From a virus (taxonomy: Duplodnaviria > Heunggongvirae > Uroviricota > Caudoviricetes), in IMG/VR virus record IMGVR_UViG_2690316131_000017: a stretch of 16,159 bases of DNA; one strand, written 5' to 3'. Positions 2,013 through 8,978 of this stretch are shown one piece after another. Made by a program: the position numbers and the translations under genes. The notes under the pieces were generated by a model. It did not search any database, was not told the origin of the DNA, and worked only from the letters and a program-made list of their open reading frames with translations. Numbering within the stretch: position 1 is the first letter of the stretch; each line of letters opens with the position of its first letter.

Positions 2013-2126
2013 GATTGAGGTGGTGGTCATTCTGCCCGACCGCGCATTTTTGCGCTATCGGGAATATAAAACAGTTACCGCCGTCAGCTACCCAGCTCAG
2101 AATTGAGCCGCCTTTTAATCAACAAG

Positions 2127-2408
2127 TTACCGCCGTAACCGCTCCGGCTTCTTCCAGTGGTACGTGATTTTCTCCTTCTCCCGATACAGTTCAACGCGGC
2201 GATTGTAGGCCAGCATTTCCAGAACGCGGATCCGTATGTCGCGCATATCCGCATCATTAAGCTGGATACCATCACGGCGCATCACCTCAGCAACAACACG
2301 CGCATAATTTTCGGCTGTCACGCTGTCCGGCTGCGTGGTCTGTTCGTCAGCCTGCTGGCTGATTCCAGAGACGCGGCGGATTAATCGCAGTATTTCGGCT
2401 TCTGTCAT
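2127..2408 (-). CDS. hypothetical protein (93 aa), last gene of the island
   Basis: ATG at 2408 with a GAGG Shine-Dalgarno 6-9 nt upstream; sits 14 bp downstream of the TerL stop. No family recognised. Confidence 0.55.
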   Translation of the reverse strand: MTEAEILRLIRRVSGISQQADEQTTQPDSVTAENYARVVAEVMRRDGIQLNDADMRDIRIRVLEMLAYNRRVELYREKEKITYHWKKPERLRR

Positions 2409-2421
2409 GCTGCTGACCTCA

Positions 2422-4083
2422 TTACACCCCGCTAAATTCTTCCAGTTTCTGGCGGTGGCTGTCGCTTATATCAAAAGCAAAATCCTCATGCTCTGCCTGG
2501 AATGTACCAAACGCCATCAGCGCCGCCACGCTCGGGTCTATCTTGTTCGGTGATTTTTTCTTGTTCGGCTTGATATTGGCGTTCGCGTCACTCTGCATCA
2601 CGACGTTACTCATCGACCAGGACAACACCGGATCGCCACGATGCACAATCACCCTGCGGTTAACAAAAACTTCGAACGATTTCGCCGCCGGACTGAATCT
2701 GAGGTAGGTTTGCGGGAACGGCTCCACCTCAAAGCCTGCCCCCTGTAATTGCGTCCTGAGATGCGTGGCGTTCCACGTATCAAAGCCCACCAGCCTGATA
2801 TTAAATTTCTCCGCATCCTGCATGATGTCATCTCTGATCCGGTCGTAATCAATGCAGTCACCTGGCGTTGTGCGTATCCAGCCCGCTTTAGCCCACTGGC
2901 GATAGACAGCGCGGTTTTTATTGGCGGGGTTCTGTAGCTGGAACTCCGGCAGATAATGACGGGAAACCAGCATGATATTTTTACCGACCGGAAAGGCATA
3001 GCACACGCTGGAAATATCGCTGGTTGATGATAAGTCCAGCCCCGCGTAACACTCCTGCCCGTGTAAATCTTCCTCCGTGAACGTTCCGGCACACTCAGCC
3101 CATGCGCCGTTACCCATCCACGGGGTAGCCCCCTGGCACCAGATATTAAATCGCTTTGTCATCATCTCCACCCATTGCGACGGAATACCCCGCGCTTTCT
3201 GGATGGTTGAGGCCAGTTTTTCACGATCCACGGAAACATCGATGTTAGGGTTAGCCTTTATCCACATCGCCGGATCATCAACCTCGTTTTCGTCGTCCAG
3301 TTCGTAAATCAGTACAAAAATTGAATCGTTGACCTCTTCGCCGTCCAGGATCTGGCAGCAATAATCATAGTGCTGCTTACAGGCTGAAACGACGTTACTG
3401 CCCGATGTGGTAATGGCAAATAACAGCCCTTCGGGACGTGCGCCCATCCCCAGCTCAAGCGCGGAATAAACGCCGTTATCGGGGTGTAGGTGGTATTCGT
3501 CCACGATGGAAAGGCTTGGGTTTGTGCCCTCGATGGTTGCCGCTTTTGCTGCCAGCGGCTTTAACAGGCTGTTGCTTTTCGGGTGCATCACCTTGTGGGC
3601 CTGAATATTCACCCGCCTGCGTAACGGTCGGGATAAAAGGCACATCTGACGCGCATCATCAAAAACGATCCGCGCCTGGTCACGGCTCACCGCTGCGGTG
3701 TAAATATCCTGCTGCCCGTTCTCCATAATCAGAAACCAGTTAGCCAGAATCGCGGCGGTCGTGGATTTCGCATTTTTGCGCGGCACTTCGATAAAGGCGC
3801 TCGTGTATTTGCGCCGTCCGGTGGCCTTAACCTTAAAGCCGAGGATGCACGCAAAGGCGAACTGCTGCCACGGCTCCAGCTCAATGGGTCTGCCACGCAT
3901 CGGCCCTTTTACGTGCGGGCACACCCTGGAAAAGGCAATAAACCGCTCCACAACCTCACGATCGAACGTGTAAAGGGGGCTTTCAAGGTCCGAAAAGTAC
4001 CGTTTAACGGCCTGTTTCAGCCGTTTACAGGCCGGAATTTTGCCCGTTTTTACGTCTTCTGCGTACTTATTCCAGGCGGTCAA
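2422..4083 (-). CDS. terminase large subunit (HK97-type)
   Basis: 553 aa with an N-terminal ATPase P-loop-like segment (PRKNAKST) and a C-terminal nuclease-type region with acidic residues. The ORF-track start at 4083 is TTG with a GAGGA Shine-Dalgarno, overlapping the TerS 3' end by 17 nt. Confidence 0.88.
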   Translation of the reverse strand: MTAWNKYAEDVKTGKIPACKRLKQAVKRYFSDLESPLYTFDREVVERFIAFSRVCPHVKGPMRGRPIELEPWQQFAFACILGFKVKATGRRKYTSAFIEVPRKNAKSTTAAILANWFLIMENGQQDIYTAAVSRDQARIVFDDARQMCLLSRPLRRRVNIQAHKVMHPKSNSLLKPLAAKAATIEGTNPSLSIVDEYHLHPDNGVYSALELGMGARPEGLLFAITTSGSNVVSACKQHYDYCCQILDGEEVNDSIFVLIYELDDENEVDDPAMWIKANPNIDVSVDREKLASTIQKARGIPSQWVEMMTKRFNIWCQGATPWMGNGAWAECAGTFTEEDLHGQECYAGLDLSSTSDISSVCYAFPVGKNIMLVSRHYLPEFQLQNPANKNRAVYRQWAKAGWIRTTPGDCIDYDRIRDDIMQDAEKFNIRLVGFDTWNATHLRTQLQGAGFEVEPFPQTYLRFSPAAKSFEVFVNRRVIVHRGDPVLSWSMSNVVMQSDANANIKPNKKKSPNKIDPSVAALMAFGTFQAEHEDFAFDISDSHRQKLEEFSGV

Positions 4084-4423
4084 GCTCGTCCTCTTCTTCT
4101 GTTTCCGGTGGATTTTTACGGCGGCTTATCGGGTCAAAACCGAGCAAAGAGGCCATTTTTATCATCACTCTTTCAGCGTCGGATTTTGCGCTTAATGCGG
4201 GGTTTCTGCTCTCACCGCCCTGACTGTTAACAATGCTGAACCCGCGCGCCGCAAGGTCTGCAACGGCTTTCCGGTAAATGGAGTAGTTGACACAATACAG
4301 TTCCAGATTGCTCCAGTCGGCGGGGGTCAGGTCTCCCCGTTCCGCAAGCTGCCTAGATTTTTCCCGCCACTGCTTCACGGCGATATCATCCAGGTAGGCG
4401 GGGGCTTTCGGTGGTCTTGACAT
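4067..4423 (-). CDS. terminase small subunit, P27 family
   Basis: 118 aa; the pattern (LTPADWSNLELYCVNYSIYRKAVADL ... NPALSAKSDAERVMIKMASLLGFDPISRRK) is typical of P27-type TerS; acidic C-terminus. ATG at 4423. Confidence 0.85.
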   Translation of the reverse strand: MSRPPKAPAYLDDIAVKQWREKSRQLAERGDLTPADWSNLELYCVNYSIYRKAVADLAARGFSIVNSQGGESRNPALSAKSDAERVMIKMASLLGFDPISRRKNPPETEEEDELDRLE

Positions 4424-4546
4424 GCTTATTTTTTCGCCAGATTATTTTTCAAAAAATTCCCGTGCATAAAAATTTGAGGAGGCGTTCGGTGCCCGGCGGA
4501 GTCGGGTTTGTCCTGAAAACGCCCCCCACCCCGTCATACAGCCTCA
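4424..4546. other. candidate cos/packaging-site region upstream of TerS
   Basis: 123-bp non-coding gap between the HNH-side small ORF and TerS, containing a G/C-rich tract (aaaacgccccccaccccgtc). In HNH plus P27-TerS cos phages the cos site usually lies near terS. Position is inferred only. Confidence 0.3.
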
Positions 4547-4729
4547 TCAGCGATTGCGAAAACATTCCATAACCTCGCGGTCACGGTCGGTTAATCGCTT
4601 CGCTGTGATGCGTTCTGCGCGTCCTGACGCTTTATCTTTATGCCCTGTTTCCTGTGTCTTCCATGCGTCACGCTGCCTTATAAGTCCACGGATAAGGCGG
4701 TTTTGTTCCCGCTCATTCATCAGCGTCAT
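4547..4729 (-). CDS. small basic hypothetical protein (60 aa)
   Basis: ATG at 4727-4729 inside the longer track ORF 4547-4951, overlapping the HNH 3' end. Basic composition. Uncertain. Confidence 0.35.
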   Translation of the reverse strand: MTLMNEREQNRLIRGLIRQRDAWKTQETGHKDKASGRAERITAKRLTDRDREVMECFRNR

Positions 4730-5153
4730 ACATCCAGTTATTGCGGTTAGCGGCCCGTTCTTCCTCTGCACGAAATCCACCTGCGGCACGCTTGCTTTTT
4801 GTTGCCGGATCAAGCCATTTCGTTTTCTGGTTATGACACGCCTGGCACAATGGTTGATGGTTCCATTCGGGCCAGAAGAGAACATCATCACCGCCATTAA
4901 TCGGGATAATGTGATCCACCACCACGGCGGGCGTATATATCCCCTTCTCAAGGCATCGCACGCATAACGGGTTTTTACTCAGATACATGGCGCGGTATTT
5001 GTCCCACTGTCTGGAATATCCACGCGCGCGGCGGTGTCCTCGTCTGGCATCCTCTGCACGCCATGCCGCCCGCCTGTGCTCCTCACACTTGCCGGATTTA
5101 ACGCGCCTGTTACAGCCTGGTTCTGTGCATCGTCTTAATGGTTGCCACGGCAT
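4713..5153 (-). CDS. HNH endonuclease (terminase-associated)
   Basis: 146 aa with Cys-rich Zn-binding segments and an HNH core (DHIIPINGG ... NHQPLCQACHNQKT). ATG at 5153 overlaps the connector stop (ATGA). Confidence 0.85.
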   Translation of the reverse strand: MPWQPLRRCTEPGCNRRVKSGKCEEHRRAAWRAEDARRGHRRARGYSRQWDKYRAMYLSKNPLCVRCLEKGIYTPAVVVDHIIPINGGDDVLFWPEWNHQPLCQACHNQKTKWLDPATKSKRAAGGFRAEEERAANRNNWMYDADE

Positions 5154-7605: not shown

Positions 7606-8763
7606 TTAATCGTCGTCCTGTGGCAGTTCCAGAATCTTGATCGCGTTCGAATCCACCACGCCACCGCCTAAATATTTCTGCGTGAAAATTTTGATGAAGC
7701 CCGGCTCTGTGAGGTTGTCCGGTCTGGTGCGAACACCTGTTTCGTGATCAACAATGTAGTAACCGCGTTTGAAGTCACCCAGGGCAATAACGTTATCAGG
7801 CATAAACTCCAGATATTCGACCGGAAGGCCCAGCAACGTATCAGGATCACCCGCCTGTAAACGGTCACGCCAGATGTAATCACCGTTCGCGTTCTTCACC
7901 TTCTGGAGTTTTGCCGCCGTCGTGGAGTTAACCACCCAGACCGCGTTTTTGCGGTATTTTTTACGTAATGCAAATTTCAGGTCGATCAGCGGGTCCGCAG
8001 ATGTCCACGCCAGAGATTCGGAAGGTTTAATTACCTGCAACGTACCAAAATCACGCTCTTTGTCGTTCTTCTCTGCACGGGGTACGGATAAAAAGCCTTT
8101 TGCTTTTTTGTCACCGTCGCCCACAACCAGATCGCTTTCTTCGGTTTCCGTGAAGGTGTCGCCAATCTCGCCCGTCAGCCATGAAAGGATGTCCACATCG
8201 GAAAAATCCACGATTTCCTGTGTGGTGCGCGGGTACGCATAGACCGGATACAGCTTAATGCTCACCTCGTTAATCTGCGGGGTGCTGGTCTGTTCGCGTG
8301 CCTTACCCTCTTCACCGTGGTTAACGGTCGCACCGCCAGCGGAAACAAGCTGCTTAAACTCGTTGCTGCTGATTTTCTTCACGGTACAGATGCGGCGCAT
8401 GGTGGATTCATCCGCCAGCATTCGCATGATTTCGGTGTTCAGTTCGGGGATAACGGTATAACCACCATCAGCGGGAACGCCTGTACTTAATGCGCGGGTT
8501 TCACCCGTCAGAATGTAGTTTCGTAGTTCTGCGGGGTCAGTGGTCTGACTGCTTTTACCTGGCTTGCTGCGCTCTTCGTCTGCAATGGCTTCAAGGCGGG
8601 AAATGTCTTTATCGAGGGATTCAGCTTTAGCGCGTAATTCGTCAAATTTTGCGCCCTCAGCATCGTTAAGACTGCGGTTTTCTTTTTCAGCGTTCTCCAG
8701 CATGTCGCGCATCTGATTTTTAATGGCGGTTTTCTGCTGGCGTAATTCGATTATTCTCGGCAT
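7606..8763 (-). CDS. major capsid protein, HK97 fold, with N-terminal coiled-coil delta (scaffold) domain
   Basis: N-terminal ~100 aa is heptad-rich and charged, followed by an HK97-like capsid body. No separate scaffold gene. First ATG at 8763; the track ORF extends to a TTG at 8808. Confidence 0.85.
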   Translation of the reverse strand: MPRIIELRQQKTAIKNQMRDMLENAEKENRSLNDAEGAKFDELRAKAESLDKDISRLEAIADEERSKPGKSSQTTDPAELRNYILTGETRALSTGVPADGGYTVIPELNTEIMRMLADESTMRRICTVKKISSNEFKQLVSAGGATVNHGEEGKAREQTSTPQINEVSIKLYPVYAYPRTTQEIVDFSDVDILSWLTGEIGDTFTETEESDLVVGDGDKKAKGFLSVPRAEKNDKERDFGTLQVIKPSESLAWTSADPLIDLKFALRKKYRKNAVWVVNSTTAAKLQKVKNANGDYIWRDRLQAGDPDTLLGLPVEYLEFMPDNVIALGDFKRGYYIVDHETGVRTRPDNLTEPGFIKIFTQKYLGGGVVDSNAIKILELPQDDD

Positions 8764-8978
8764 AAAAAAAAGTCCTGGGGTTAAGTAAGGAACTCCAGGA
8801 CGCGGCAAACACTCAACCGTTTTTCATAAGGAAATCAGCAATCGCACCGATCGTTTTCCCGCCTGGTAATGAATATTGGCGAGCACATTAACAGGCGGGA
8901 AAGTGGCCCCAGCGTCCTGGCACCACGGGCGAGAATAATCATGATTCAGTTCGGGTAAAATATGCCGATCCGCTCAGT

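Follow-up and report, generated by a model that had tools for sequence, protein, structure and literature searches.

Does the non-coding gap just upstream of the small terminase gene (terS) serve as the cos site at which this element is cut for packaging and, if so, where would the cut fall? We addressed this question in the whole stretch of DNA presented here (16,159 nucleotides, hereafter the window), for which a preliminary description had proposed a candidate cos site in the gap. Gene context, conservation of the core, the genome ends of relatives and homology to the cos sites of phages SfI and SfV all support that proposal, and the gap is very probably the cos site of a cf-PICI (capsid-forming PICI), of the HNH-dependent HK97/SfV type. 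The position of the cut in the window can be placed by homology to within a few bases.

The window carries a capsid-forming PICI with its own terminase and HNH genes

The window carries a cf-PICI whose capsid and packaging operon lies on the minus strand. A Pfam search of the window returned matches for all head and packaging genes, which comprise, besides those listed in Table 1, an HK97-type prohead protease, a portal, a head completion protein and a head–tail connector, likewise on the minus strand. A stretch of E. coli FORC_041 is 99.8% identical to the window and its annotation agrees with the Pfam calls. This annotation places the locus between phoQ and roxA and includes an integrase, an AlpA-type regulator and a helicase/primase, with tail genes and lysis genes absent from it. 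The window itself stops at the integrase start codon. An integrase and replication module, an own capsid, protease, portal and connectors, together with HNH, TerS and TerL, were thus all found within ~15 kb, and both this anatomy and the gene order agree with the published description of cf-PICIs, of which EcCIEDL933 is the prototype (10.1101/2022.09.08.507074). A match to the region is present in 533 of 5,426 complete E. coli genomes.

The element encodes a cognate TerS, a TerL with a nuclease domain and an HNH protein. TerL is predicted to cut at least one strand, and the HNH protein would, by analogy, act as the accessory nuclease in HK97-type cos cleavage. For an element with its own HNH, TerS and TerL, a cos site is an expected feature and belongs to a known kind of site.

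Table 1. Genes of the packaging module and predicted elements of the cos site (positions are those of the window)
Feature	Position	Strand	Basis or remark
Major capsid protein	7606–8808	minus	Pfam
HNH endonuclease	4713–5153	minus	Pfam PF01844
60-aa ORF, between HNH and gap	4547–4729	minus	RefSeq hypothetical protein
Non-coding gap, 60-aa ORF to terS	4424–4546 (123 nt)	minus	ORF map and RefSeq annotation of the 99.8% identical genome
G-run GGGGTGGGGGG	4532–4522	minus	pairwise identity 0.85, four invariant G; once in window
Spacer, 33 nt, ending GGCAC	4521–4489	minus	from G-run to predicted overhang
Predicted cutting core, cosN-like	4479–4493	minus	conserved GGCAC (4493–4489), then 10-mer
Predicted 10-nt 3' overhang CGAACGCCTC (plus strand GAGGCGTTCG)	4488–4479	minus	
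Predicted TerS recognition block, cosB-like, CTCAAATTTTTATGCACGGGAATTTTTTGAAAAATAAT	4478–4441	minus	+1 to +38 from the cut
Leader, 17 nt, just before terS ATG	4440–4424	minus	poorly conserved, pairwise identity 0.50
terS, P27-family small terminase, 118 aa	4067–4423	minus	Pfam PF05119, E 1.3e-23
terL, large terminase, ATPase and nuclease domains	2422–4083	minus	Pfam PF03354 and PF20441

A single large non-coding gap precedes terS

Neighbouring genes of the packaging module mostly overlap each other. The gap, bounded by the stop codon of the 60-aa ORF (4549–4547) and the TerS ATG (4423–4421), is the largest intergenic gap from the capsid gene to the ORF after terL, the runner-up measuring 39 nt. 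The earlier claim that it is the only sizeable non-coding gap in the packaging module therefore holds, with exact coordinates. The reported G/C-rich tract was also recovered: positions 4479–4546, which include the G-run, have a GC content of 66%, the 99th percentile among same-size windows of this DNA, whereas the terS-proximal part (4424–4478) has 29%, the 0.6th percentile. The gap had further been placed between the HNH gene and terS. It does lie between the two genes; however, the HNH gene does not adjoin it, as the 60-aa ORF, for which a Pfam search gave zero matches, intervenes.

No species-conserved ORF was found inside the gap. A 31-codon minus-strand ORF (4537–4442) was considered as a conserved gene and rejected, as relatives carry indels and missing start codons. 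Many gene callers report a 156–165-aa 'TerS' (P0001, P0005–P0063) with an extra N-terminus that spans the cos region. In the window, an in-frame TAA (4444–4442) blocks this reading, and comparison between species shows no conservation of the extension; these proteins therefore look like over-extended gene calls. A search of the gap against Rfam gave zero matches, scans of it for a terminator and, on the coding strand, for a sigma-70-like promoter found none, and its RNA folding showed no excess (z-score −0.7). Nothing in these results favours an RNA element or a terminator.

The AT-rich half of the gap directly precedes terS and conserved A/T tracts are common in promoters, which raises the possibility that the gap does no more than serve the expression of terS–terL (as a promoter, an activator site or a translation leader) and that the packaging site lies elsewhere, e.g. 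in 1462–2126 or upstream of the capsid gene. Against this stand the missing sigma-70-like promoter on the coding strand and the missing terminator, the presence in the conserved part of a GC-rich 10-mer homologous to a mapped cos, the single occurrence of the motif in the window, and the ends of two relatives' linear assemblies, which lie in the gap and nowhere else (see below). We consider it very unlikely that the gap is an expression signal only, although the conserved AT-rich block could have a role in terS expression too, or instead.

The motif of block 4441–4478 occurs once in the 16-kb window and shuffles gave no match at all; its presence in a single copy argues against a second site in 1462–2126. 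The latter is a 665-nt non-coding region between phoQ and a 93-aa ORF after terL, and presumably represents the island end with the att site. A motif search of the window found the cos motif absent from it.

The gap core is conserved across species

Conservation was assessed in the terS-upstream region, using one genome per species among GTDB representatives. The set of 33 sequences consists of the window, 30 species representatives from Enterobacterales and Aeromonas (Klebsiella, Citrobacter, Serratia, Erwinia, Xenorhabdus, Pectobacterium and others), a second E. coli island and the Pasteurella element Pmp8. Three non-coding blocks are conserved in the alignment, namely GGGGTGGGGG, ACC[GA]CCCGCC[CT]CC and TCAAATTTTTACGCACGG..ATTTTTTTGAAAATAA. 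Across the 33 sequences, the gap core (4493–4441) has a mean pairwise identity of 0.78–0.90, while TerS coding sequence has 0.73 overall, with 0.83, 0.86 and 0.50 at codon positions 1, 2 and 3, respectively, and the adjacent 60-aa ORF has a nucleotide identity of 0.38. The most conserved non-coding stretch is the block 4441–4478, at 0.79–0.90 versus 0.50 for TerS third positions. The non-coding core is thus conserved like codon positions 1 and 2, which points to a cis-acting site; strong purifying selection acts on this core throughout Enterobacterales, Aeromonas and Pasteurella. Four bases, A4490, C4489, C4488 and C4482, are invariant in all 33 sequences.

Two observations concern individual copies of the island. 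Among near-identical E. coli copies (L002, L008, L010, L024 and L036), the second G-stretch of the G-run (window 4522–4527, a C-run on the plus strand) varies in length, ranging from GGGGTGGGGG to GGGGTGGGGGGGG, which could reflect homopolymer slippage or sequencing error. In Shigella flexneri SFBU1023 (CP182556.1, L263, ~2990–3000), the sequence ...GGGGTGGGGGGCGTTTTCAGGAC runs straight into terS at about codon 8. This copy has lost ~110 nt, among them the predicted cos core and the start of terS, so the island copy is probably immobile.

Linear assemblies of relatives end within the homologous gap

Genome ends were supplied by relatives whose TerS is ~80% identical to that of the window. The first is vB_KppS-Ant (LR881103, 16,548 bp, linear), obtained from a lysate on K. 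pneumoniae DSM 30104 and sequenced with Nextera XT (PMC8006926). Its genes run in the order terS, terL, ..., int, ..., capsid, ..., HNH, small ORF, which indicates an excised cf-PICI with its break between the small ORF and terS. The assembly is 100% identical to the island of K. pneumoniae ATCC 13883, minus 69 nt at the join of its end and start. In the chromosome, these 69 nt lie between ...TTTTCAGGAC and ACGAAAAGG... and span the homologous site. Tagmentation libraries are expected to lose some tens of bases at true DNA ends, and a rotated circular assembly would have cost zero bases. By its gene content and identity, vB_KppS-Ant is the packaged cf-PICI of K. pneumoniae ATCC 13883 (= DSM 30104). 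Its record (LR881103.1) is named 'Escherichia phage', and the accompanying paper speaks of a filamentous ssDNA prophage (PMC8006926). It also carries, after terL, a 765-aa ORF (2036–4333) annotated as a tape measure protein, to which the window has no counterpart.

The second is IMG/VR contig 3300022664_000095, a single metagenome-derived contig of 15,518 nt that is collinear with vB_KppS-Ant and has int in mid-contig. It ends with ...CAGGACAAAACCCAAGCCGCAAGGCAC, the final bases being GGCAC, and begins with CTCAAATTTTTACGCACGG.... Integrated relatives read ...GCAAGGCAC CACCCGCCCC CTCAAATTT..., and the contig ends with GCAAGGCAC and starts with CTCAAATTT, so that exactly 10 nt (CACCCGCCCC) are missing between its end and its start. 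Contig breaks caused by assembly-graph branching at a conserved block were considered as the source of these ends and rejected, as they would give overlapping ends and not a 10-nt gap. The chance that two independent 16-kb assemblies would open within the same 69 nt is of the order of (69/16,000)^2. End repair that fills in a 5' overhang would duplicate its bases, and repair that trims off a 3' overhang would produce the gap observed; the loss of the 10 nt suggests that the overhang has 3' polarity. The missing rather than duplicated bases also set the site apart from a lambda-type cos, which has a 12-nt 5' overhang.

The same ends bear on whether packaging could start here by a headful (pac) mechanism, which would produce permuted, terminally redundant DNA with no fixed cohesive ends. 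TerS-dependent pac sites are often found in or near terS, as the gap is. However, neither permuted nor terminally redundant ends were found in the two relatives: the virome contig has no terminal repeat, and its ends and those of vB_KppS-Ant flank a single point. Moreover, an HNH gene adjoining the terminase genes marks HK97-type cos systems (Kala et al. 2014, as cited in 10.1101/2022.09.08.507074 and PMC11331095), and DNA of the related cf-PICI KpCIDSM30104 has been reported to renature into concatemers via cohesive cos ends (10.1101/2025.02.11.637232). Headful packaging from this site is therefore hardly credible to us.

Further collections gave no additional ends. An IMG/VR scan for the exact site variant of the window yielded 38 contigs, none of which ends at the site, and gave no particle-derived sequence of this exact island. 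In a metagenome scan, all 82 stretches recovered carry the site internally; what looked like a terminus in one case (L316) was discarded, being the edge of a stored stretch and not a contig end. A search for contigs encoding TerS returned integrated chromosomal copies only, and zero ends. The match to Klebsiella phage P12620-1 (106 kb) begins only at about the terS start, which makes this phage uninformative for the cos region. In its record (PQ569648.1, ~90,640), unrelated sequence adjoins a cf-PICI terS–terL segment that starts near the second terS codon, which could reflect either a chimeric assembly or recombination. A more divergent site lies internally in ERZ1023299 NODE_94 (L378; 15,632 nt, coverage 454x), where it reads GAGGGTGGGGGCAATTTCAAAAAG...GGAACCGCCCGCCCACTCAAATTTTTACGCGCGG. 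This contig may derive from a replicating or induced island whose assembly closed into a circle.

The site is homologous to mapped phage cos sites

The cos of phage SfI was mapped from the same kind of signature, a 10-nt gap, 5'-TGCCCGCCCC-3', by comparing run-off reads on virion DNA with the prophage. The SfV cos differs from it by one base, and SfI carries a P27-family TerS and an HNH gene (PMC3636060). The records of SfV and ST64B show a G-rich run, 31 nt, TGCCCGCCCC, a [CA]TCG(A/T)-rich...ATACCCGCGAAAAATG stretch and terS, and an EDL933-type cf-PICI shows GGGGTGGGGG, 35 nt, CGCCCGCCCC and CTCAAATTTTTACGCACGGTGATTTTTTT. Of the 10 positions of the mapped SfI cos, 9 are matched by the cf-PICI consensus CGCCCGCCCC and 6 by the window's own 10-mer. 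The next 12 nt are almost identical as well, with TGCCCGCCCC CTCGAATTTTTA in ST64B and CGCCCGCCCC CTCAAATTTTTA in cf-PICIs. In a MAFFT alignment of seven regions, the 10-mers of SfV/ST64B and of cf-PICIs occupy the same columns as the final 10 nt of HK97. The site thus has sequence homology to an experimentally mapped cos.

The likeness to SfV, SfI and ST64B extends to the whole order of HNH, G-rich run, 31–33 nt, GC-rich 10-mer, AT-rich stretch, GC core, A/T tract and terS. At the protein level, the window and SfV TerS belong to the same Pfam family, PF05119, with 36% identity, the TerL proteins are 30% identical, and the window HNH is 37–39% identical to the SfV and HK97 HNH proteins. There are also differences. 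The putative TerS-site region diverges from +12 on (ACGCACGG..ATTTTTTTGAAAATAA versus ATACCCGCGAAAAATGAAATTTAA), the 118-aa TerS of the window lacks the N-terminal extension of ~50 aa found in SfV TerS, and the 10-mer of the window island carries three substitutions. Furthermore, the element in the window is a 15-kb tail-less satellite, whereas SfV, SfI and ST64B are phages.

HK97 offers a second comparison. It has 10-nt 3' overhangs, and its HNH protein gp74 stimulates cleavage (PMC11331095, PMC9410871). Its minimal TerS site CTAACCCGATTTTTT lies at +15..+29, with the A/T tract needed (PMC11331095). The HK97 record ends with ...GGGGGGGGG, 32 nt and CGCCGCCAAA, and starts with GTTTGAATTTAACGCTAACCCGATTTTTTT, with terS at +50. 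The window resembles it in having a G-run ~32 nt before the overhang, a terS start ~50 nt past the cut and a 27% identical TerL, and what appears to be the counterpart of the HK97 TerS site, a GC triplet followed by a T-tract, falls in the same register at +15..+29 (4464–4450). In contrast, the overhangs differ (CGCCGCCAAA in HK97, CGAACGCCTC in the window), as does the TerS-site sequence, and HK97 gp1 falls outside PF05119 and has zero detectable similarity to the window TerS.

Predicted layout of the site

The comparisons lead to a base-by-base prediction for the window (Table 1), in which the minus strand would be nicked between 4479/4478 and the plus strand between 4488/4489. Upstream of these nicks, the G-run may be a cosQ-like element or one that faces TerL and HNH. 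Within the spacer, the identity profile of the alignment shows TTTTCAGGACAA (4519–4508) to be partly conserved and 4507–4494 to be variable. Downstream, TerS is, by analogy, the predicted reader of block 4441–4478, whose core CACGGGAATTTTTTG consists of a GC triplet and then a T-run at +15..+29 (4464–4450, with +1 = 4478). The 3' part of the G-run, GGGGGCGTT (4518–4526), forms an imperfect inverted repeat with the overhang region, AACGCCTCC (4478–4486). The two arms are 9 nt long, 89% complementary and 31 nt apart, and SfV and HK97 also have such G-rich/C-rich partners.

The site could be a cos and the cut nevertheless differ from this prediction by a few bases, in the length or the position of the overhang. 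The exact 10-nt gap was observed in one contig alone, the 10-mer of the window, CGAACGCCTC, differs from the cf-PICI consensus at three positions, and in the close relative L347 the 10-mer is replaced by a 9-nt version. On the other hand, the 10-nt length agrees with SfI/SfV and HK97, and the window has kept the flanking invariant bases AC|C and T as well as the ATTTTT run. On balance we regard a shifted cut as unlikely and prefer the predicted 10-nt overhang.

Packaging specificity and proposed mechanism

A demonstrated helper of EcCIEDL933 is HK106. From the G-run to terS, the HK106 cos equals the HK97 cos, bar one extra G in the G-run, and it differs from the island site both in the overhang and over the entire TerS-site region. 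The description of the cos as island-specific is therefore borne out at the sequence level. This specificity needs a qualification, as cf-PICIs of many genera share the site nearly unchanged and SfV/ST64B-type phages have an almost matching cutting core.

Published genetics of EcCIEDL933 can be set beside this. Mutation of each gene of the packaging module, including hnh, terS and terL, abolished island transfer, except that mutation of the hypothetical gene 1792 severely reduced transfer without abolishing it, and helper transfer was unaffected in the mutants (10.1101/2022.09.08.507074). Island and helper have each been reported to be packaged exclusively into their own capsids. An island cos that differs from the helper cos fits both the exclusive packaging and the unaffected helper transfer. 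The cf-PICI literature searched yielded no mapped position of a cf-PICI cos. Satellite P4 and the cos-type SaPIs (SaPIbov5) are similar in that a satellite-borne cos directs packaging of the satellite; however, they copy the cos of the helper, whereas the island's site differs from the HK106/HK97 cos. The E. coli PICIs that encode Rpp differ in another way: they retarget the helper TerS, whereas the island's site would be read by its own TerS, TerL and HNH.

Based on these comparisons, we propose the following mechanism. Helper-induced excision and replication would precede cutting. The island TerS would bind the block just upstream of its own gene (~4478–4441, core 4464–4450) and position TerL, aided by the island HNH protein, on the GC-rich core. 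The strands would then be nicked 10 bp apart, the minus strand at 4479/4478 and the plus strand at 4488/4489, to yield linear DNA of unit length whose 3' cohesive ends, CGAACGCCTC-3' and GAGGCGTTCG-3', are each 10 nt long. Packaging would proceed from the terS end toward decreasing window coordinates, through the att junction, to the next cos of the concatemer. A recognition block and an overhang unlike those of HK106/HK97 would keep the two packaging systems separate. For the island, we infer the exact nick positions, the assignment of proteins to blocks and any role of the G-run, whereas the position of the site, its conservation, the genome ends of relatives and the homology to a mapped cos were shown directly.

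The site might also be modular, with the G-run and the GC-rich 10-mer read by TerL/HNH and the downstream block read by TerS. Many genera of cf-PICIs have the G-run and the 10-mer in common with SfV/ST64B-type phages, and HK97 shares the layout. All of these have homologous TerL and HNH proteins, and the block past the cut varies with TerS lineage. We put this forward tentatively, as a reading that is rather doubtful at present.

Implications for satellite packaging

If the modular reading were true, about 25 bp would determine the packaging specificity between satellite and helper, cf-PICIs of different genera, whose blocks are near-identical, could package each other's DNA, and terminases of the SfV/ST64B type might nick cf-PICI cos sites. 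The analysis provides a base-level, testable cos prediction for a widespread satellite family. A defined cos of ~90 bp would allow plasmids to be packaged in cf-PICI particles. With it, one could test directly what keeps satellite and helper from packaging one another, and cf-PICI genomes and their true ends would become easier to recognise in virome data.
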